Origin: Naegleria gruberi
Lineage: Eukaryota
NCBI GenBank assembly: GCA_000004985.1
Contig: GG738893.1
Length of the DNA: 64,000 bases
Strand: one strand, 5' to 3'
Below are positions 4,676 to 55,118 of the stretch, one piece after another. Position 1 is the stretch's first letter; every line of letters starts with the position of its first letter. The notes below the pieces were generated by a model that searched no databases, was not told the DNA's origin, and saw only the letters and a list, made by a program, of their open reading frames with translations. A program made the translations under genes and the position numbers.

Positions 4676-6959
4676 TTATTTCCATTGAGGTTTTGCATAT
4701 TTAGTCTCTGCTTGTTGCTGCTGTCTCAACAAACTCATAGAGTTGGCTATTTTCTTAATATATTCTGGTGATTTGTGAATTACAGGTTTAAAGCTACACT
4801 CTGCCATCTCGCGTTGATCTTTTTCCTTCTCCATTTCTTCCAATTTCTTTTTGGTATTTTGGCTTCTTGTTTCCAATCTTTCTTTATGACTCTGCGGCGA
4901 ATAGTTCAAGATACCTGTACTCCTAGCGATTGAGGGTTTGAAGGTTGTTTCTTGTTTGAGTTTTAGCTCTGCTTCTTCCCTTTGTTGCTTAATTCTGTGG
5001 GCAATCTTTTCTTGATCACCCTTGCAAAGTTGATCAATTGTTTTACTCGGTTTAGATTTTGCCCTTTCAGTAATGAAGGGCTTAAATGAAAATTGTTCTT
5101 CTTCCTTTTCGTTCTGTAATTTGGTGTGATTAAAAAAAATTGAAGAATAAACTTACAATCTTCTTCCTATGCTTCAGAATTTCATTCCTCTTCTCTTGAT
5201 CCAAACCATGAAATATTTCCATACTCTTATTATTCAAAGCTGGTTTGTAGGAAAACTCTGTCTGTCTAATGAAATCAATCTTTTCCTCCTTCTTTGATAA
5301 TGTTTGATTTTGTCTTTTTAAAAACTCTTCAAAATTTCCTGTTGGTCTATATTTTCCAGCAGATTTAGGCCTAGATTCCTTATTTTGATTTTTCCTTTTG
5401 ATAACTGTATCATCAGACGCTAAACGCCTGCTGAGTCTTAAAAACGGATCTTCTGATAAGTACTTAATACTCGATTGATGTGAAACTTTTGGATCTAAGG
5501 TATTAGGTTTGAAAGTATAATCAATAGATTCATCTTTCTTTTTCTCGATTGGTTTCTTAGGTTCTAAATACTTAGGTTGAGCATTTGAGCTCTTAATTTT
5601 TGGTTTAAATGTACACGTTTTTCTAAATTCATCTTCACTTAGTTTGTATCTATTCTCATCGATTTTGTCCATCACTCTGAATGAATCAACATAAAGCCTA
5701 TCATACACTCCAACTTCTTCATCAAGTTTTCGAAGTGAGATTGGATTAATTTCTGGTTTAAATGAGCAGTCTTTCTTTAGCGAGTCTTGCAGCGCCTTCT
5801 CCATTGTTTTTTTATCTTGTTCTACCTTTTCCTTCCATCTACTCGCTCTTTCAACAAAAGATTCTGTCTCTATTATTGCACTATTATATTTGCTAATGTT
5901 TGGATGAAAAGTACATTCAGCCATTTTCTTTGAATCATCTTCTAGAGATTTGTCCAAATTTCTCTTTCGTTTGTCGAGAGAAAAGCTGAACGGCACTGGT
6001 TTTGTTAGTGTCTTCTTTTCCAATTGTTTTGTCGGTGATGATTTCATTGGAGAGGTATATTGGTTCAATAAATTAATGGATGACTCAGATTTGAAATTTG
6101 TTGATCTCTGATTGTTATATTGTGGAGATGAATAGGAATCAATTTTCTTTTCAGGGCTATTTCCTTGCAACAGTTTGCTTATCATTGAATCTATTTGTTT
6201 CAGTTGTTCACTTGTTTCTGCTATTGAAGAAACATTGGAAAGATGGCTAACATTATGTGAAGGCGATTTCGGAATAATCTGAACTTTCCCACTCTTTTTC
6301 AAGCCATCATCACTGCCATAACTTAAATTAAGCATACTCTTCCCAACTCTACTATTTTCAGGAGATTTTTCTTTTGATTTTGTTTGAGAATTAGACTCTG
6401 TGAAGGAGCAATATTGTTCAATAAATTTAGCAATTTCACTCCTTTCCTCATCTTCAACATATGAAGCTGCATCAGATACAAAATTTCCATCAGACTGTTC
6501 AATAACTCCCAATGCTTCTAACATTGATTCCCTTTCCTTATCATTATTATCAATCATGTCCAAGAAGTGATGATAATGAACATGTTTTTCTTTCGGGCTC
6601 TTTTGTTTACTTTGATCCTCAGCTGTAATGATATTCCACATTGGTTGGTTATTTTCATCCGGTTCTTCATCATCCTCATGGAATGAACGCTTTTCCATTC
6701 CATCATCTTCCTCATTACTCATTCCATCATCCTCAGAAAGCGATAAATCATCAATACTCTGATGTAAATCAAAATCAAACTTTTCTCCTACTCTGGAAAA
6801 TAAGGCTTTTTGTTTCTGAAATTCCTCATCTACATCGTCAATATTTCTTCCCTTATATAAAAATTGATATTTCTGGAGAGGAGTTTGTTCCAAAGATGAT
6901 GATGAAGTATTTCGCTGCTTCTGCTCGACAGTATCAAACAGAGCGCCATTTCTACTCAT
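4676..6959 (-). CDS. Two-exon gene, complement(join(4676..5113,5157..6959)): about 747-aa protein with at least 9 copies of a short C/T-x-F-K/H-P-x-I motif (AECTFHPNI, DCSFKPEI, KTCTFKPKI, DYTFKPNT, EFSYKPAL, EEQFSFKPFI, ETTFKPSI, AECSFKPVI) separated by charged linkers
   Basis: The ORFs 5130..6959 and 4676..4909 are joined by a 43-nt intron (GTAAGT...ACAG on the minus strand, + coordinates 5114..5156). The junction is in phase (AAG ATT | AAC GAA). The upstream ORF otherwise reads into intron as VSLFFNFF*. The motif repeats continue across the splice. Confidence 0.65.
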
Positions 6960-7195
6960 TTTATTTTGATGATGATTTAAGCGAAGCTCACTGTAGCCTT
7001 TTTATTGTATGTTTTCAAAGTCTGTTTGAAATTATCATAAATTGTATGAGTTTTAAAAATTGCCGCCAAAATTTCTAAAGAATCAATAAGTACAAATGGA
7101 GGGAAAAGTTACTTATTGATTATTTCTGATTCAACTAATGATAACAAATAGTGTTGCTCTCTCCTTATTAATTGAGTAATCATCATGTGATTCAT

Positions 7196-8697
7196 CTATT
7201 TTTTCGAAGATGGTTGTTTAGAATTTCTTCTAATCATTTCAACTGTGGTGGCAACATTTTGTTCAGTTTGTTGAAGGGCACCAGCTTTGTTTTCATTTCT
7301 ATTCTTCAATTGTCCACATGCACCAAGAATATCTTGTCCTTTGCTGTGTCTTACCGGTGCTGAGATTCCATTCTTGTAGAGGTATTTGGAAAATTCTTCA
7401 ATTCTTTCATCTGATGAGCATTCAAATCCACTTCCTTCCCATTCATTAAATGCAATCAAATTGACTGAACATGGAATGTCTTTAACCAATTTTACAAGAC
7501 GTTTGGCATCGTCAATAAAGTCATTCACATGATTCAACATGACATATTCGAAAGTGATATGTCTATTATTGTTTTTGAAGCATTGCTCTCTAAGGGTTTC
7601 AAATAAAACCTCCAGAGGGAAAATCTTATTAATTGGCACAATGTTATCTCTCAATTCATTGGTTGTGGCGTGAAGACTGATTGCTAAATTCACTCCCAAA
7701 TCATTGACAACATCTGGAATCAAGTTACATACTCCAGAAGTACTCACAATGATTTTTCTCTTTGAAATTCCACATCCATCACTCAAAATTTCAATGGCCT
7801 TTTTAACATTTTTGTAATTACTGCAATTAAAGGATTATGGTAAATTATTTAAATAATGAAATCAAAAACCTACTAGAGTGGTTCTCCTTCTCCCATAAAT
7901 ACAATATTATTAACAAATGATTTTTCAATAGAGGCTCTCTTTCTTTCTTCCTCTGTCATGTATATTGGAAAGTCCATCAATCTATGTTTAACTGAAACTA
8001 ATTGGCTTACAATTTCTGAAGCCAATAAATTTCTCTCAATAGGAGCTGTTCCAGTTCTGCAAAACTTACAATTCAATGAACATCCAACCTGACTACTCAA
8101 ACACACAGTTCCTCTTCCAAAACTATCACTAGCTTTTGGTGGATGGTAAATATATACTGCCTCAACTTTGTTAAATTGTTTTTGTTCTTTGAGAGTTGGT
8201 TTCTTCATTGGTGAAATTGCAACATCAGCATCAGAAATATTCTGTTGATTACCACATGATGACGATGCTGATGAAGTGGTGGAAACAATTGTACTATCAA
8301 CACTATTATCTGCAACAGGTGGCACATATTTTGGATTTTGAAAAGCAAATAAAAACTTTCTCGTGTGTTTATCCTTCTTGGATTTAATTTCTTCCTCAAT
8401 ATTTCCCAAAATATCAATAGAGTATAGTTCCGATAATGATTGACGATCGGATTTGGTCAAGACTGTAATATCATCAAATTTTCTGGCTCCAAACTTGTAT
8501 ATGAATTTATAAATTTCATTCAATCGGAATGATGATGCAACATGTGGATGAGTCTTTTCCAATATTTCCTTCATTTCTGTCTTGTTTAATCCCATCAGGG
8601 ATTTTCTAACAATTTGTGTTGAATAGAATCTGTGTTGAAAGTTTCCATTGATGACAATTTGTCGAGCACATAAATTTCCTAAAATCAATTTTTGCAT
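7196..8697 (-). CDS. RlmN/Cfr-family radical SAM RNA methyltransferase (23S rRNA m2A2503 / tRNA m2A37 type), two exons complement(join(7196..7820,7874..8697)), with N-terminal extension
   Basis: The CxxxCxxC cluster (CSLNCKFCRTG) is followed by FMGEGEPL(Y) and then ISLHATTNELRDNIVPINK...FEYVMLNHVNDF...IPCSVNLIAFNEW...ACGQL, which aligns along the whole length of bacterial RlmN. A 53-nt intron (GTAGGT...TTGCAG) splits MGEGEPL|YNYKNV in phase 2. N-terminal residues MQKLILGNLCARQIV...RFYS look like an organelle-targeting presequence. An S/T-rich insert precedes the Cys cluster. Confidence 0.8.
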
Positions 8698-9082: not shown

Positions 9083-9982
9083 ATGATGAAAAACCTCTCA
9101 TCCAAAATTATAGCAAGTTTGCTCTTGTTGAGTTTGGTTGTTCTCTTTACATTTGTTTCATCAACAAATGCCAAGAAGAGCGAATCATCCTTGTCAACTC
9201 AACTCGCCTCTGCTTTTAAACTTGAAAAGAAGCAAAGAAAGAAGACAAGAACATCAAAGAGAAGACCAGTTAGTAAACGTCTTTTGAAGAAGAGACGTCA
9301 ACTCTGTCGTAGAATTAGACTTGTCAAGAAGCAAATTAAAAAACTCACATTCAAGATTGCTAAAGCCTCTGATAGAGCCATGACCAAGATTGTTAGAAAG
9401 ATCAAGGTTAGAAAACTCTTGCTCCGTGCTTTGAGAAGAAAGCTCAGATCACTCAAGAGAAAGATTCAAAGAAAGCAAAGAAAGGTCAAGAAATCTCAAA
9501 AGAAGAATCGTCGTTTGACTTCTACCTTGAGAAAGCTCAAGAGAAAGGTCCTTAGATTGGCCAGAAAGCAACAACAAAAGAGAAGATCACCAAGAAGAAG
9601 ACCAAGAATTATCATCCTTGCATTCAATCGTGCTCAATTCTTCAACAAATTGGTGAGAAATAGCAAACATCGTTTCTATGGAAAGAGAGGATTCAGAAAG
9701 TATGCTCGTTTGTTGAGTTTACTCAAATTGGTCAGAGCTAAGAAGGCTGCTTTGACAAAGAAGAGAAACTTCTACGCAAAGAAGGAAAAGAGAATTGTCT
9801 CCTTGTTGAGAAAATTAAAACAAAGATGGTCTGTTGGAAGAAGTAGAAGATCATCAAAGAGAACCAAGATTACAAGAATTGTCTTGAGAAATGTTGACTC
9901 AAAGAAGAAGGTTAAACTCGTCATTCCAAAGAGATTGAAGAAGAAGGTTAAGAAGATTGTTGTTTATAGTGTTAAACAATAA
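9083..9982 (+). CDS. Secreted (signal-peptide-bearing), extremely basic K/R-rich 299-aa protein
   Basis: N-terminus MMKNLSSKIIASLLLLSLVVLFTFVSSTNA|KK is a canonical ER signal peptide. The remainder is about 40% Lys+Arg with no acidic stretches. Codon usage is mixed (aag, aga, cgt, ttg, ctc) rather than plain A-runs, arguing for a real CDS. It is transcribed divergently from the RlmN-like gene, sharing a 385-bp promoter region. Confidence 0.55.
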   Translation: MMKNLSSKIIASLLLLSLVVLFTFVSSTNAKKSESSLSTQLASAFKLEKKQRKKTRTSKRRPVSKRLLKKRRQLCRRIRLVKKQIKKLTFKIAKASDRAMTKIVRKIKVRKLLLRALRRKLRSLKRKIQRKQRKVKKSQKKNRRLTSTLRKLKRKVLRLARKQQQKRRSPRRRPRIIILAFNRAQFFNKLVRNSKHRFYGKRGFRKYARLLSLLKLVRAKKAALTKKRNFYAKKEKRIVSLLRKLKQRWSVGRSRRSSKRTKITRIVLRNVDSKKKVKLVIPKRLKKKVKKIVVYSVKQ

Positions 9983-15833: not shown

Positions 15834-18800
15834 ATGAATTTACTTCATGCTTTCACCATCTTGTTGTTGGTTTTCACTCTCATACTCCAAATAACCAATG
15901 GACCTGTCGAATGCCAAACCATCAACACAATTGCTGGCTCGCTTCCATATGGCTATAATGGTGATAATCAAGTGGCAATAAAAGCAGAACTCTACCAACC
16001 AAAACAATTGGCTTATTACAATAACGAGGTTTATATTGCTGACAGTGCCAATCATATGATTAGAAAAATACTTTCGAATGGGACAATAGTTTCGATTGCT
16101 GGTTGGATGGGTTCACCTGGCTATAATGGTGATAATCAATTGGCTAACATGGCTAAACTCAATGCTCCAAATGGTTTGGCAATTTCTTCTGCCACAGGTC
16201 ACATCTATATCGCGGGTTAGTTGTTAATTTTTATTGGAATTTAACTTTTGCAAGATACTCAAAATTATCGAGTTAGAAAGATTGTAAATGGTGTCATTTC
16301 AACAATTTCTGGAACTGGAGTACAAGGCAGTTGTTCAGATGGAGTTCTAGCTATCAACTGTGCATTATACTCTCCATCCAATATTGCTATTCGAACTATT
16401 GAAGGAGTTGGTGATGAAATTTACATTGCCGATTCGAGTATCGTTAGGAAGATTGGAACAGATGGAAAAATCTATAGATATGCAGGTGGAGGCAATGAAA
16501 ATATTGAGTATGGCTCTGCAGTTTCAGCTCAACTTGCCTCTCCTCTCAGTGTTGGAATTTCACCCACTACAGGAGAGCTCTTCATTGGAATAGGAATCAA
16601 TTATATTATTAGAAAGGTCTTTCTGAATGGTACAATAGTTTCTGTAGCGGAGAAGGAAAGTTCTATTCAGGGTTTTGTTTCGGGTGTTACTGGAATATCA
16701 TTTTCAAATACTTCTCTCTATTACACAGAGTATCAGGCACGTGTTAAACAACTATTCCTCTCAAATGGAACATTTTCTGTTATTGGTGGAAACCTTAATG
16801 TTATGGTTACCAATTATCAAGATAACATTTTGGCAACAGATGCCACTCTATTAGGTCTGAAAGGAATTGCATTCTCTCCAGAAAAGAATGAAGTGTATAT
16901 CTCTGAATATGATTCATTCGCTACTAATGGAAGAGTGAGAAAGATTGGATCTGATGGATATATTGTAACAGTGGCAGGTAATTTGACAAGTTTGAATAGT
17001 GGATATAATGGTGATGATATTATGGCCACGGATGCAAAATTGTATAGACCTGAGGCTGTAATAGTTTCTAATAGTGGGGATGTCATAATTTCAGATACTG
17101 GTAATAGTAGAATTAGAAAGATTCTGTCTAGTGGTAAAATTGTGACCATTGTTGGACAAGGAAACTTTGGTAATACTGCAAATTATAATGGAGATGGTAT
17201 TCCTGCTATTGCTGCAAATATCAAATTTCCAAGTGCTATTTTACTTTCATCTAGCAATGAATTGTACATTGCCGATTTTGGTAATTATCGAGTTCGAAAG
17301 GTACTTGCTAACGGAACGATAACAACCATCGCAGGAACAGGTTCTAACATAGAATCTACTGCCTTAGATTTGGCCATTAATGTTGGAATTGGATCACCAA
17401 TAGGTTTAGCTATTTTTGGTGATGAGGTTTATTTCACCACAAATTCCAATAGAGTTAGAAAGATTTTGAGTAATGGAACTTTAATAGTCTATGCAGGTAC
17501 TGGAACAGTTGGCTATGATTCAAATAATGTATTGGCCGTTAATGCTAAACTAAATGCTCCAACATTCTTGGCTGTTTATCCTAATGGAGATTTGCTGATT
17601 TCAGATAGTTTCAATTATATGATTAGAAAAGTTCTGACAAATGGTACCATTATTCGAGTTGCAGGAACTGGAACATTTGGATACAATGGAGACAACATCT
17701 TGGCTATAAATGCCCAATTGGCTAATCCACAAGGAATTCATATACTTTCGAACGGTGATATTCTATTCTCAGATCAGTTCAATTATAGGGTGAGAAAAAT
17801 TCTGACCAATGGAACAATTTTAACAGTTGCTGGATCTGGAACTTTTGGATACAATGGAGAAAATTTACCAGCTTTAAGTACACAATTATATGCAGCTCAG
17901 GGCTTGGCAGTTTCACCTATCGATGGTTCGATTATTTTAGCTGACACGTCAAATCACAGAATTAGGAAAATATTAGATTTCTGTGATTCGAATAGAACTT
18001 GTAATAATAATGGTTTCTGTAACACAACCTCTAATCAATGCGTTTGTTATTCGGGATGGATTGGGTCAACATGTTCCTCCTTTTCATGTGATGCCTTAAA
18101 CAATTGTAATGGAAATGGAAAGTGTATTGGAAATAACACTTGCCAATGTGATTTGGGATGGAGAGGAAATTCTCAATGCAGTCAATATTCATGTGAAATT
18201 TACAATAATTGTTATGGAAATGGAATGTGTGTGAAAAACAATACATGTGAGTGTTATTCTGGATGGAGAGGATCATCTGCTAATTGTTCACAGTTTTCAT
18301 GTGATGGAGTGGCAAACTGCTCAGAACATGGTATTTGTATGGGAAATAATTCATGCTCATGTCACACTGGATGGAAAAATAACCAATGCTCAGAAATTTC
18401 ATGTGACATTCTCAATAATTGTTATGGAAATGGCATTTGTAAAACGAATAATACATGTGAATGCAATTCAGGATGGAAAGGTGCCTCAAATTGCTCTCTT
18501 TTCACATGTGAAGGTGTTGGAAATTGCAGTTCTCATGGAAAATGTATTGGAAATAACACTTGCCAATGTGATTTGGGATGGAAAGGAAATTCTCAATGCA
18601 GTCAATTTTCTTGTGAGATTTACAATAATTGCAATGGAAACGGATATTGTAAAAGTAGCAATAGTTGTGAATGTAATTCTGGATGGAAAGGTTCATTAGA
18701 TTGTTCCCAATTCTCATGCGAAGGCGTCAACAATTGTTCATCTCATGGTATTTGTTATGGAGCCAATACTTGTGTATGTGAAAAGGGATGGAAAGGAAAT

Positions 18801-20102
18801 TCTCAATGTTCTCGTCCATCATGTGAAGAATTGCAGAATTGTAATGGTAATGGAAACTGCACACTCAATGGCAACTGTTCCTGTAATAGTGGCTGGGAGG
18901 GAGCTGATTGTTCCACCATTTCAAAAGTGATAGCAGCCAATGAATCCAATAATAATACTGTGACCATTGTAGTGACAGTTGTGGCTGTAGTCGTTGTTTT
19001 ATTGATTATTGCTGCCATTGTGATAATAGTCATAGCAGTTATATTGTCAAGAAAGTATGTGAAGAAACCTAGCAATGAGTCGAAGCATGAAACAATTTTG
19101 AAGAATGATTTTGAGCTCATTGATGAAAATACGAATAGCAATACCATGACGTCGATGAAACCTGTTGAAACCATCCAATCGACGTCAATGAACGAAACCT
19201 CAATAGTTTCAGATTACCCATCTGATTCATTTCTTAGCTCAACAAAAGTTTCCTCCATTGTTTCGTCATCAGCAAAACCACTCACTCCAACTAACTCTTC
19301 AAGTCAATTCTCAATGCTTAAGGATCGTTATCAGATACAGGAAGTAATTGGGCAAGGATCTTTCGGCAAATGTTTTCTTTGTTTAGATTTGAAAAAACAA
19401 AATCAACCAGTTGCTATCAAAACCATAAGTATAGGAGAGAACAAACACTCAAAGATCATTGATGAATGCTCCAAGACTATTTCTTACAAACATCCAAGAT
19501 TGGTACAAGTTTATGAATTCTTCGAATCTGAACTTCTCAATTCAATTTGCATTGTAATGAAATTTTACAATGGAGATTTGGAAACACTATTGAAAAAGCA
19601 ACAAGGATTCCTACCTGAAAGTATGATCATCAAAATGATGAAACAATTAGGTGATGGTTTGGATTATCTTCACAATGAAAAGATGATTATTCACAGAGAT
19701 ATCAAACCAAAGAATATTTTCATTGAATCATTCGATATTGAAAGAGAGGAAATCAATGTAGTTATTGGAGATTATGGAGAAGCAAAGGATCTGGGAGAAA
19801 CCAGCAATACAGTTGCAGGAACAATTATCTACATGGCTCCAGAGGTCTTTTCCAGAAAATATGATTGTAGCGCTGATATATTTTCTCTGGGAGTGACACT
19901 TGTACAAAGTATGTCAGCAAGTGGATTCGATTTCTCAGTCACGGACAAACTCATGTACGAAGCAGAGGAGAGTGTACTGCAAAGAGTGAGTGAACATTTA
20001 CTTTCCAGAAACTATTCGATTCATTTGTGTGAGTTTGTAATTTCCATGTTATCAAGAGATCCTAAAAAGAGACCTACCTGTTTAGATATTAAGAATTATT
20101 GA
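15834..20102 (+). CDS. Receptor-like protein kinase: signal peptide, about 12 NHL repeats, about 12 tenascin-type EGF-like repeats, TM helix, S/T-rich juxtamembrane region and Ser/Thr-type kinase domain; join(15834..16215,16255..20102)
   Basis: A 39-nt intron (GTTAGT...TTGCAAG) restores the NHL consensus IYIAD|TQNYRVRKI. The motifs (I/L)YIADxxNxR(I/V)RK(I/V) and CxCxxGW(K/R)GxxC recur throughout. The TM helix is VTIVVTVVAVVVVLLIIAAIVIIVIAVIL. The kinase carries GQGSFGK...VAIK, HRDIKPKN, DYG and MAPE. Confidence 0.8.
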
Positions 20103-31720: not shown

Positions 31721-31809
31721 GGGCGGTTAGCTCAGCGGTAGAGCACCGGATTGCAAAGTTAATTGCAGCAGACATCCGATGGTCACGTGTTCGATCCACG
31801 TACCACCCT
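31721..31809 (+). tRNA. tRNA-Cys(GCA) with a roughly 17-nt intron 3' of anticodon position 37
   Basis: Acceptor GGGCGGT/ACCACCC has one C-A mismatch. D-arm is GCTC-AGCGGTA-GAGC. Anticodon stem is CCGGA, loop TTGCAA|intron|A, with anticodon GCA. The intron contains TTGCA, complementary to the anticodon region. T-arm is ACGTG-TTCGATC-CACGT, and the discriminator is U as expected for Cys. Confidence 0.6.
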
Positions 31810-50939: not shown

Positions 50940-51012
50940 CGCCCACCGTGGGGGTCGAACCCACGACCACAAGGTTAAGAGCCTTGCGCTCTACCGACTG
51001 AGCTAGACGGGC
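50940..51012 (-). tRNA. tRNA-Lys(CTT), 73 nt, intact cloverleaf
   Basis: Reverse complement GCCCGTCTAGCTCAGTCGGTAGAGCGCAAGGCTCTTAACCTTGTGGTCGTGGGTTCGACCCCCACGGTGGGCG. The anticodon loop CTCTTAA gives anticodon CTT. All four stems pair, and the sequence is near-identical to metazoan tRNA-Lys-CTT. Confidence 0.9.
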
Positions 51013-51200: not shown

Positions 51201-51273
51201 CGCCCACCGTCGTGGTCGAACCCACGACCACAAGGTTAAGAGCCTTGCTCTCTACCGACTGAGCTAGACGGGC
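51201..51273 (-). tRNA. Second tRNA-Lys(CTT) copy with 4 substitutions relative to the first; the T-stem and one D-stem pair are disrupted, so it is probably a degenerate or pseudo copy (or assembly noise next to the gap)
   Basis: It differs from the 50940..51012 copy at tRNA positions 25, 60, 61 and 63. G51-G63 and G53-A61 would no longer pair. The acceptor, anticodon arm and CTT anticodon are unchanged. Confidence 0.5.
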
Positions 51274-53955: not shown

Positions 53956-54075
53956 TTAAGGTAAAAAGACTACAGCACCACAGGTTCCCAAGTTGTCTCC
54001 AACCTCAGTACTGATGTGGCTCGACGATGCTTAACTTCTCAAATCGGACGGGATGAGGTGCATTCATCGTGATAT
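53956..54075 (-). rRNA. 5S ribosomal RNA gene (about 119 nt) followed by a T5 Pol III terminator
   Basis: Reverse complement GCTACGGCCATATCACGATGAATGCACCTCATCCCGTCCGATTTGAGAAGTTAAGCATCGTCGAGCCACATCAGTACTGAGGTTGGAGACAACTTGGGAACCTGTGGTGCTGTAGTCTTTTT aligns end-to-end with eukaryotic 5S rRNA (GCCTACGGCCATACCA...GGGAATACCGGGTGCTGTAGGCTTT). It is GC-richer than the flanking DNA. Confidence 0.85.
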
Positions 54076-55118
54076 GGCCGTAGCCATTCAATTAACAAAA
54101 ATCTTAATCATAAATAATACAACCTACAAAAACAAGCTCTTAATCATAAAAAATAAGTTTTTGTTTATGGTTAACACTTTTCACTTTTCCATTTGGAAAC
54201 ACATTGACGATATTGTTCAGTAGTTGCCAATTCTTCAATTGATTTCTTATTGACACAATAAGTAATGATTAACTACATTCTTGTAAATGTTTCATCAATC
54301 CATTGTTTCATGAATGCTGGCATTGAGTACATTGGAAATTGGAAGAAATAAATAAAGATGAATCCTGACCATCTATTTGTTTCAAGTTTGTAATGGAAAC
54401 CAATTTCTCAAACCATTGAGAAAACAATCATATTCTAACCCACCTTCATCACAAATTATTACAATTGTTATGGTATTCAGTTGTTATTTCAGAAAACTTT
54501 CAATCATGCAGATTAATCTTTATAATGTTCCATATCAAGCATGTGGTATCTTGTTTTCTATTTATTGGGTTTAGCATTAGAGATGTCATTACATTTGAGA
54601 GTTATTTACAATAATTATTGATATGGACTGGTAATCTACCGAATTTGGATGAAAGAGACAAAGTACTGTTCATGCCCTTTCAGTTAATATCATTCACTGA
54701 ATGTAAGTTATGAATTAACATGCTGTTTCAAGGTATACAATGCAATCTAATTGTTATCAGAAAGTTGAAGAAACGAACCTAAAATCAGCCAAGTTGTTTT
54801 GTTTGTGAAAAGATATTGTGATATCAACGAAATAATCATTTTCACAGAAAGTGAATCTGATTTTTCAGGATCCCTTAGTCCAGCCAACTGTCAACTAATC
54901 AACATCTATTCGAATGTTAAAAATGTCAGATTTTTCAACATCAACTTTAGTGTCCAAGTCATATTGTTTGACCTACATCAACATTTTAAAACAAAACAAT
55001 CTTTCCATACATATGAAAGTGTCACCAATCATTGTCAATTTTCATTCACAAACTTGGAATAAGTTTTTTTTGAAACAAGCTGTCTTCCATCCTATCCACT
55101 TTCAACTAACAAGACTGT

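Follow-up and report, generated by a model that had tools for sequence, protein, structure and literature searches.

The gene on the minus strand at positions 7196..8697 of a 64,000-nucleotide stretch of Naegleria gruberi contig GG738893.1 (the window) is almost certainly a genuine nuclear gene, and with the same high confidence its product is assigned, in family and chemistry, to the bacterial-type RlmN radical SAM methyl synthases. Overall, the best explanation is an RlmN gene of alphaproteobacterial type, from a lineage that is old within Heterolobosea, with a product that probably works in the mitochondrion. It is an ordinary member of its family that is present in GenBank without a name, XP_002673123.1 being labelled only "predicted protein". 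To our knowledge, eukaryotic RlmN-like enzymes have been demonstrated only in plants, where they act on plastid rRNA and tRNA and on cytosolic tRNA, and have been described in Toxoplasma. A published survey recognises six eukaryotic RlmN-like clades, none of them from Discoba (PMC10838301). Literature searches with the locus tag, the accessions and RlmN in combination with Naegleria or mitoribosomes returned no paper that links RlmN to Naegleria, and the Andalucia mitoproteome paper is silent on RlmN. The original prediction, made from the letters of the window, had called such enzymes sparsely documented outside plastid-bearing lineages; this is true of the literature but not of the databases, which contain many homologues with presequence-like N-termini from Mucoromycota, chytrids and Amoebozoa.

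Gene structure and splicing

The open reading frame starts with an ATG at 8697 and ends with a TAG stop at 7198..7196, and all features given here lie on the minus strand. Exon 1 (7874..8697, 824 nt) comprises codons 1-274 plus two nucleotides of the Y275 codon, and exon 2 (7196..7820) accounts for 625 nt with the stop codon counted in. They are separated by a GT..AG intron of 53 nt (7821..7873; GTAGGT...TTGCAG, 22.6% GC) that interrupts the Y275 codon in phase 2. The MGEGEPL motif ends exon 1, with only the two nucleotides of Y275 between it and the intron, and without splicing the frame meets a TAG stop directly past this motif. Removal of the intron regains colinearity with the intronless Willaertia orthologue in the alignment, the spliced reading across the junction being MGEGEPLYNYKNVKKAIEIL opposite MGEGEPLYNFKNVRKACEIL in Willaertia. 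The spliced CDS of 1449 nt encodes a 482 aa protein that is identical at every residue to N. gruberi EFC40379.1/XP_002673123.1 (NAEGRDRAFT_71844), which bears out the 53-nt spliceosomal-type intron originally proposed. The N. lovaniensis orthologue contains two introns, one of them 13 nt upstream of the N. gruberi site.

A second, unrecognised intron in the S/T-rich stretch of exon 1 was also considered and rejected, as the stretch is in frame and present in the deposited N. gruberi model. The same reading is ruled out by the Willaertia gene, which has no introns and keeps the stretch at a variable length.

A nuclear gene of the host

The CDS has a GC content of 33.6% (GC3 26.3%) and its relative synonymous codon usage correlates at 0.93 with that of 14 neighbouring ORFs, in agreement with the host-like composition and codon usage claimed earlier. 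The gene resides on a 337-kb scaffold among eukaryotic genes that encode a PH domain protein, an AAA/Vps4-like protein and an EGF/NHL receptor kinase. Scans for bacterial promoters and terminators near the gene gave no excess over chance, as is expected for a eukaryotic gene. Orthologues were found on large eukaryotic contigs of N. lovaniensis (79% identity), N. fowleri (76%), Willaertia (66%) and Acrasis (48%). By far most RlmN proteins are bacterial, with bacterial homologues at 40-43% identity, which would fit recent horizontal acquisition from a bacterial donor or contamination of the assembly with bacterial DNA. This scarcely credible explanation is refuted by the intron, the host-like GC content and codon usage, the eukaryotic flanking genes on a long scaffold and the orthologues in four other heterolobosean genomes whose identities of 48-79% are far above those of any bacterium. 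The distribution across Heterolobosea excludes both contamination and recent transfer.

RlmN rather than Cfr

The protein matches the NCBIfam RlmN model TIGR00048 (EC 2.1.1.192) with 304.8 bits (E 7e-91) over residues 30-451 of 482, above the curated equivalog cut-off of 290 bits, and the Pfam Radical_SAM model with 40 bits (cut-off 29.5). The N-terminal helical domain characteristic of RlmN (residues 34-94, 8416..8598) scores 23.9 bits with Pfam RlmN_N PF21016, just below the cut-off of 24; the same region lies within the TIGR00048 alignment and its helices are modelled with a pLDDT >90. The best sequence match in the PDB is E. coli RlmN (E 3e-60), with alignment of C118, the CX3CX2C motif and C355. 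The AF2 model has a pLDDT of 82.9, rising above 90 in the catalytic core, which superposes on RlmN, and the top structures retrieved with Foldseek are the RlmN entries 5hr7, 3rfa and 6fz6 (E 1e-31 to 1e-32, target TM 0.85-0.90). The RlmN family membership proposed from the sequence is therefore sustained by the profile, by the closest PDB sequence and by the fold, and the motifs cited for it (CSLNCKFCRTG, MGEGEPL, SLHA, IPCSVNLIAFN and ACGQL) are all present.

Cfr belongs to the same superfamily and is the second-best fold match, so that an enzyme of the Cfr type, which forms m8A2503, the antibiotic-resistance modification, had to be weighed. However, the Foldseek match to Cfr (8e-17) falls 15 orders of magnitude short of those to RlmN, and all of the Cfr models remain far below their cut-offs (NF000424, 172 vs 530 bits; NF011024, 171 vs 468; TIGR04432, 164 vs 550), whereas the RlmN model passes its own. 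A Cfr-type identity is thus exceedingly improbable.

Catalytic residues and proposed chemistry

In E. coli RlmN, Cys355 carries the methyl group and Cys118 resolves the crosslink between enzyme and RNA. Alignment to 3rf9 identifies the counterpart of Cys355 as Cys443 in the ACGQL motif (7316..7318) and that of Cys118 as Cys199 (8101..8103), and both cysteines are invariant across 34 aligned homologues. The CX3CX2C motif of the [4Fe-4S] cluster and SAM comprises C206, C210 and C213 (8059..8082) according to the Pfam and PDB alignments. From the conservation of these residues and by analogy with E. coli RlmN we infer that one SAM would methylate Cys443 and that the [4Fe-4S] cluster coordinated by C206, C210 and C213 would bring about the reductive cleavage of a second SAM. 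The resulting 5'-deoxyadenosyl radical would activate the methyl-cysteine for addition to C2 of the target adenine, and the protein-RNA crosslink would then be resolved by Cys199 to yield m2A.

The Naegleria protein resembles E. coli RlmN (PDB 3RF9, 5HR7), an enzyme with dual specificity for m2A2503 of 23S rRNA and m2A37 of tRNA, in the order of its domains (first the N-terminal helices, then the radical SAM core), as well as in the CX3CX2C motif, both catalytic cysteines, the predicted fold and its passage of the RlmN equivalog model. It differs in being the product of a nuclear, intron-containing gene, in its identity of only about 30% and in its basic N-terminus. Further differences are a disordered insert of about 50 aa and a 7-aa insert ahead of the Cys199 strand, as well as MGEGE in place of MGMGE and NLIAFNEWEGSGF in place of NLIPWNPFPGAPY. 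The MGEGEPL motif (residues 268-274, 7874..7894) departs from the bacterial MGMGEPL in that it keeps G-x-G-E but has glutamic acid for the second methionine, a position taken by glutamine in other eukaryotic homologues. The deviation from the bacterial MGMGE counts against the preferred reading of the gene, and the clade to which the gene belongs furthermore has NLIAFNEW where others have NLIPFNPWPG.

Such clade-specific changes within motifs that are otherwise near-invariant might indicate that the enzyme has been neofunctionalised, with MGEGE, the altered NLIAFNEWEGSGF loop and the insert reflecting a new RNA target or the loss of methyl synthase activity. It has been allowed that some eukaryotic clades methylate other types of RNA (PMC10838301). 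Nevertheless, every residue known to be catalytic is invariant, the full-length score lies above the RlmN equivalog cut-off and the core, modelled at a pLDDT >90, superposes on RlmN, all of which makes a neofunctionalised enzyme quite improbable and favours an RlmN with conserved chemistry.

The S/T-rich insert occupies approximately residues 122-173 (8179..8334; the boundaries, taken from alignments, are approximate) at the site of a β-hairpin between the N-terminal domain and the radical SAM core. Among the aligned homologues it is found in Naegleria and Willaertia only and is missing from every bacterial one, which upholds the earlier claim of a lineage-specific insert with no bacterial counterpart. 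The pLDDT drops below 50 at residues 138-162 in the AF2 model, and the insert is predicted to form a disordered loop that replaces the β-hairpin turn outside the catalytic core.

N-terminus, location and candidate substrates

The N-terminal 33 residues, MQKLILGNLCARQIVINGNFQHRFYSTQIVRKS (8599..8697), are a candidate mitochondrial presequence judging from their composition and predicted disorder. They include five K/R residues and an RFY|S motif resembling the R-3 type, and no D/E occurs before residue 41; the hydrophobic moment is low at 0.29. The N. lovaniensis and N. fowleri orthologues carry S/T/R-rich extensions of 70-72 aa, and basic, acid-poor N-termini of 33-72 residues are thus shared by all three Naegleria orthologues. 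The fungal and amoebozoan relatives have classic presequence-like N-termini. No in-frame upstream extension was found in Willaertia, and Willaertia and the other clade members, among them two on eukaryote-like contigs, have only 4-9 residues ahead of the domain in their gene calls. Of the presequence-like extension that had been predicted, the basic and acid-free charge is confirmed but the additional length is not, given that alphaproteobacterial N-termini are 6-50 aa long and acidic, and the 33 residues of N. gruberi are not longer but basic. As the N-terminus is no longer than in alphaproteobacteria and is missing in Willaertia, the mitochondrial location and the targets are what we infer.

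By way of its basic, acid-free N-terminus the protein would enter the mitochondrion, a location that we consider probable. There it would methylate the A2503 equivalent of the large-subunit rRNA and/or A37 of the mitochondrial tRNAs; that these are the substrates has slightly better than an even chance, by analogy with the dual-specificity bacterial enzyme. A different arrangement is found in Toxoplasma gondii, where TgRlmN is associated with the mitochondrion as a tail-anchored protein of the outer membrane that faces the cytosol (PMC5749711). TgRlmN is likewise an RlmN-like protein of a protist, but the Naegleria protein lacks a hydrophobic segment at its C-terminus, the maximum hydropathy over 19 residues within its last 60 residues being about 0 on the Kyte-Doolittle scale. 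Over the same length, no such segment was detected in any of the four orthologues examined.

A second RlmN paralogue, newly noticed here, is present in N. fowleri (FDP41_001815) and N. lovaniensis. The N. lovaniensis copy is more canonical in sequence and has a presequence-like N-terminus of 112 aa, and to judge by these features the second copy could be the mitochondrial enzyme. A protein search that covered the N. gruberi proteome returned no counterpart, hence the gene studied here may be the sole RlmN of this species. Precedent for paralogues that divide substrates and compartments among themselves is provided by Arabidopsis, to judge from the published description, whose nucleus-encoded RLMNL1, RLMNL2 and RLMNL3 have been shown to install m2A in the rRNA and tRNA of organelles and in cytosolic tRNA (PMC10838301). 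The Arabidopsis enzymes differ in their cyanobacterial, deltaproteobacterial or absent bacterial affinity and in being plastid or cytosolic rather than mitochondrial.

The paralogue bears on an alternative in which the enzyme has the same chemistry but is cytosolic and modifies A37 of nuclear-encoded tRNAs in the manner of RLMNL3, leaving any mitochondrial role to the second copy. Plants are known to have an RlmN-like enzyme that acts in the cytosol (PMC10838301), and the clade members outside Naegleria, Willaertia included, are devoid of the N-terminal extension. The clade of the studied gene is the divergent copy, with NLIAFNEW for NLIPFNPWPG and the insert, beside a more canonical paralogue whose N-terminus is long and presequence-like in N. 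lovaniensis. Nor did the protein appear among the examined entries of the published N. gruberi mitochondrial proteome (Supplementary Data 2 of Horvathova et al. 2021, PMC8134430), which is weak evidence. Against a cytosolic enzyme stand the basic, acid-poor N-termini of the three Naegleria orthologues and the fact that the second paralogue was not found in the N. gruberi proteome; on balance we regard it as unlikely and retain the mitochondrial location as the favoured reading.

Origin and eukaryotic relatives

The nearest bacterial relatives of the protein are alphaproteobacteria. All of the top bacterial matches that carry names belong to this class, at approximately 40-43% identity, and when GTDB species genomes are searched, 69 of the best 80 loci bear alphaproteobacterial names. 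Alphaproteobacterial RlmN proteins (of Rhizobiales, Rhodospirillales and others) share with the Naegleria protein a CHTGTQ-type context and a [DE][FW]P-containing segment after the Fe-S motif, but differ in having acidic N-termini, MGMGEP and no insert. Given these affinities and the orthologues in four other heterolobosean genomes, the gene can be placed in a lineage that is old within Heterolobosea and alphaproteobacterial in type.

The closest eukaryotic parallels are the fungal "clade VI" RlmN-like proteins defined by Duan et al. 2024 (PMC10838301) and amoebozoan homologues from Balamuthia, Luapelamoeba and Vermistella. Like the Naegleria protein they are eukaryotic and alphaproteobacteria-like, with presequence-like N-termini and an MG[Q/E]GEP signature, which is newly noticed here as common to all three groups. 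They differ in that they come from other supergroups, are known from sequence alone, lack the S/T insert and keep NLIPFNPWPG. In rough neighbour-joining (NJ) trees built on p-distance corrections a split groups them on the Naegleria side, with weak bootstrap support. When the motif column is masked this side holds all 26 named eukaryotes and none of the 17 named alphaproteobacteria, a split that does not stay stable in bootstrap replicates, where on average 3.25 named alphaproteobacteria fall inside the best-matching split. Local nodes of the NJ trees have 30-60% bootstrap support, and at such values for the deep nodes the question of origin is narrowed rather than settled.

It is tentatively proposed, as a possibility that we do not rate highly, that the gene is one branch of an ancient, perhaps LECA-age, mitochondrial RlmN lineage marked by MG[Q/E]GEP, which would be patchily distributed in Discoba (Heterolobosea), Amoebozoa and early-diverging Fungi and would have been duplicated within Heterolobosea. 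The studied gene, with its insert and NLIAFNEW, would then be the divergent copy, and the canonical copy would be that of N. fowleri and N. lovaniensis, apparently missing in N. gruberi. The two would split their tasks between rRNA and tRNA, or between the mitochondrion and the cytosol. If this is true, m2A would be an ancestral modification of the mitochondrial translation apparatus that animals and Dikarya have lost. More generally, the occurrence of an RlmN with alphaproteobacterial affinity in Heterolobosea, and of related proteins in Amoebozoa and early fungi, would point to a place for m2A in ancestral mitochondrial translation, in the peptidyl-transferase centre or else in position 37 of tRNA. 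The efficacy of drugs that bind the peptidyl-transferase centre depends on the methylation status of A2503, and RlmN genes of this kind are present in the lethal pathogens Naegleria fowleri and Balamuthia.

Gene structure and existing record

The RlmN gene of Naegleria gruberi lies on the minus strand at 7196-8697 and is composed of two ORFs that are joined by splicing. Read unspliced, the first ORF opens with the ATG at 8697, immediately 5' of which are in-frame stop codons, and closes at a TAG directly after the peptide MGEGEPL, and the RlmN homology resumes in the second ORF further downstream. Removal of a 53-nt intron (7873..7821, minus strand, GTAGGT...TTGCAG, 22.6% GC) fuses both ORFs in frame into a 1449-nt CDS encoding a 482-aa protein, which reads MGEGEPL-Y-NYKNVKKAIEIL across the junction, where it is colinear with the Willaertia magna orthologue, whose gene lacks introns. 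The spliced product is an exact, full-length match to EFC40379.1/XP_002673123.1 (NAEGRDRAFT_71844, UniProt D2VS80), which is encoded on a 337 kb scaffold and whose sole annotation is "predicted protein [Naegleria gruberi]". This places the window in the nuclear genome of N. gruberi and means that the gene model, with its intron, is already public without a functional name. This exact match, together with the restored frame, bears out the original prediction of a gene carrying a 53-nt spliceosomal-type intron. A copy of the gene is present on a 1622-bp ENA assembly contig from a 99%-identical strain, where prokaryote-style gene calling cut it at the intron into ORFs of 274 and 196 aa; one of the products (P0004) differs from the window protein by Q120E, S132G and S135G, all in exon 1.

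The number of introns varies between orthologues, with one in N. gruberi, two in N. lovaniensis and none in Willaertia (window 7821-7873 compared with positions 6001-7691 of the N. lovaniensis locus L001 and 6001-7329 of the Willaertia locus L002). One N. lovaniensis intron, inside the Asn codon of IERN|LLAS, is additional relative to N. gruberi, and the other interrupts the second Gly codon of MGEGE in phase 1, 13 nt upstream of the phase 2 site of N. gruberi. These shifted positions suggest intron sliding or independent gain.

Family assignment and predicted chemistry

The protein scores 304.8 bits over residues 30-451 against TIGR00048, the NCBIfam RlmN equivalog (cut-off 290), and 164-172 bits against three Cfr models, all below their cut-offs of 468-550. 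Pfam Radical_SAM matches with 40 bits and RlmN_N with 23.9 bits, marginally under its cut-off of 24. Among solved structures, sequence similarity is highest to E. coli RlmN entries (E 3e-60), and in the alignment with E. coli RlmN C199 corresponds to C118, C206/C210/C213 to C125/C129/C132 and C443 to C355. An AlphaFold2 model built from 34 homologues (mean pLDDT 82.9) predicts the fold with high confidence, and its top Foldseek matches are the RlmN structures 5hr7, 3rfa and 6fz6 (E 1e-31 to 1e-32, target TM 0.85-0.90). The match to Cfr is much weaker (8e-17) and the remaining radical SAM enzymes are weaker again. A Cfr identity is rejected by this difference and by the low model scores, and since RlmN is the best match by profile, PDB sequence and fold, the proposed RlmN-type radical SAM enzyme is upheld over any other family. 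Within the limits of sequence and fold prediction, membership of the RlmN family is established.

The complete set of residues that define RlmN methyl-synthase chemistry is present, and the chemistry of the N. gruberi protein is inferred from the established mechanism of E. coli RlmN. By analogy, Cys443 would be methylated by SAM, the [4Fe-4S] cluster would cleave a second SAM, radical chemistry would join the methylene to adenine C2, and the RNA would be freed as m2A through Cys199.

Origin and eukaryotic relatives

The RlmN gene is a genuine, old eukaryotic gene. Its GC content (33.6%, GC3 26.3%) is in line with the locus and its relative codon usage correlates with that of 14 neighbouring ORFs (r = 0.93), in agreement with the host-like composition initially described. 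The neighbours are eukaryotic (PH domain, AAA/Vps4-like ATPase, EGF/NHL receptor kinase). Orthologues are found in N. lovaniensis (79% identity), N. fowleri (76%), Willaertia magna (66%) and Acrasis kona (48%), with further ones on a few contigs adjoining WD40 or Sec7/Ras genes; the top bacterial homologues reach no more than about 40-43%. Contamination or recent transfer is excluded by the intron, the host-like GC and codon usage, the eukaryotic neighbours and the heterolobosean orthologues.

All named bacterial proteins among the top hits are alphaproteobacterial. In a GTDB scan, which used one genome per GTDB species and search patterns derived from an alignment rich in alphaproteobacteria, 69 of the best 80 loci carried alphaproteobacterial names among the matches listed, ten being unspecific Proteobacteria and one a Verrucomicrobiales MAG. 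A [DE][FW]P-containing segment C-terminal to the Fe-S motif is common to alphaproteobacteria and eukaryotic homologues and is missing in shorter representatives. Searching representatives at 50% identity, twenty of which could be assigned organism names, identified relatives in Mucoromycota (Umbelopsis, Jimgerdemannia, Cunninghamella, Rhizopus and others), Kickxellomycotina (Furculomyces, Smittium), chytrids (Chytriomyces, Irineochytrium, Gaertneriomyces) and Amoebozoa (Balamuthia, Luapelamoeba, Vermistella). In the majority of the fungal and amoebozoan proteins the N-terminus is long and basic and contains few acidic residues or none.

Compared with homologues, the MGEGEPL motif (7874-7894, minus strand) departs from bacterial RlmN, which has MGMGE in place of MGEGE. 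MG[Q/E]GEP is present in 26 of 26 named eukaryotic alphaproteobacteria-like homologues (Heterolobosea, Mucoromycota, Kickxellomycotina, chytrids, Amoebozoa and a protein clustering with a marine-eukaryote MMETSP transcript), and MGMGEP in 17 of 17 named alphaproteobacteria. Judging from these sequences, MG[Q/E]GEP may be a synapomorphy of a eukaryotic lineage. In a neighbour-joining tree with the motif column masked, one split of only moderate bootstrap stability (local nodes 30-60%) contained 61 of the 62 Q/E-type sequences, among them every named eukaryote, and none of the named alphaproteobacteria. On the question of origin, alphaproteobacterial affinity held and recent transfer did not, the phylogeny itself being a rough one. 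A fungal RlmN-like "clade VI" has been related to alphaproteobacteria (Duan et al. 2024, PMC10838301); the eukaryotic grouping fits with this clade and would widen it to Amoebozoa and Heterolobosea, although trees this rough are not proof.

Eukaryotic RlmN-like proteins are known from plants, algae, heterokonts, cryptomonads, haptophytes, some fungi and chytrids (PMC10838301) as well as Toxoplasma (PMC5749711). A literature search found no paper on RlmN in Naegleria or other Discoba, consistent with the view that such enzymes are sparsely documented in the literature, and the N. gruberi gene is therefore an uncharacterised, yet already deposited, addition to a known family. Its main significance lies in a possible ancestral mitochondrial RlmN lineage and a possible paralogue split inside Naegleria.

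A second Naegleria paralogue

The closest tree neighbour of the heterolobosean clade is another Naegleria protein, represented by N. fowleri FDP41_001815 (P0199, 415 aa) and N. lovaniensis C9374_011684 (P0363, 511 aa), which share 90% identity. C9374_011684 has a presequence-like N-terminus of 112 aa starting MLKKNFHRFFGRIL. This paralogue is more canonical, with MGQGEP and top outside matches to Mucoromycota and Rhodospirillales (44-45% identity). A protein search covering the N. gruberi proteome returned no counterpart, and the paralogue may be lost or unannotated in this species.

N-terminus, location and insert

The 33 residues ahead of the conserved domain in N. gruberi include five K/R, with no D/E before residue 41, and contain an R-3-like motif (RFY|S); N. 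lovaniensis and N. fowleri have S/T/R-rich extensions of 70-72 residues. The presequence-like character originally proposed is retained in this basic, acid-free composition, whereas its standing as an extension is weakened: alphaproteobacterial RlmN N-termini are equally long, but acidic, the helical hydrophobic moment is low (0.29), and upstream in-frame sequence was looked for in Willaertia and is absent. Unlike TgRlmN of Toxoplasma, the Naegleria protein has no C-terminal anchor (PMC5749711).

The protein is probably imported into mitochondria, where it would act on A2503 of mt-LSU rRNA and/or A37 of mt-tRNA; confidence in this reading is moderate. The main rival is that it could, like plant RLMNL3, be a cytosolic tRNA m2A37 writer. 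A2503 is conserved near-universally.

An insert of about 50 residues (roughly 122-173) takes the place of a tight beta-hairpin turn between the N-domain and the core, and seven additional residues precede the Cys199 strand. It is present in the three Naegleria species and Willaertia, where its flanks (FNKVEAVYIYHPPKA.D.FGRGT) are conserved and its low-complexity centre varies, and homologue alignments show it in neither Acrasis, the remaining clade members nor any bacteria, so that the S/T-rich insert is indeed lineage-specific. Residues 138-162 have a pLDDT <50 in the model, and the insert is best read as a predicted disordered surface loop.

The surrounding locus

Upstream of and divergent from the RlmN gene, a 299-aa ORF (9083-9982, plus strand) encodes an extremely K/R-rich stretch behind a hydrophobic N-terminus, and has no Pfam matches. 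A large ORF at 16248-20102 (plus strand), with teneurin-like NHL and EGF repeats and a C-terminal protein kinase domain, is a receptor-kinase-like gene. An 89-nt tRNA-like Rfam match at 31721-31809 (plus strand), where ARAGORN makes no call, may contain an intron or have an extended variable arm. On the minus strand, two tRNA-Lys(CTT) genes (50940-51012 and 51201-51273) are spaced 261 nt apart, and a 5S rRNA gene (53967-54085, minus strand; Rfam, 105 bits) is surrounded by protein-coding genes.
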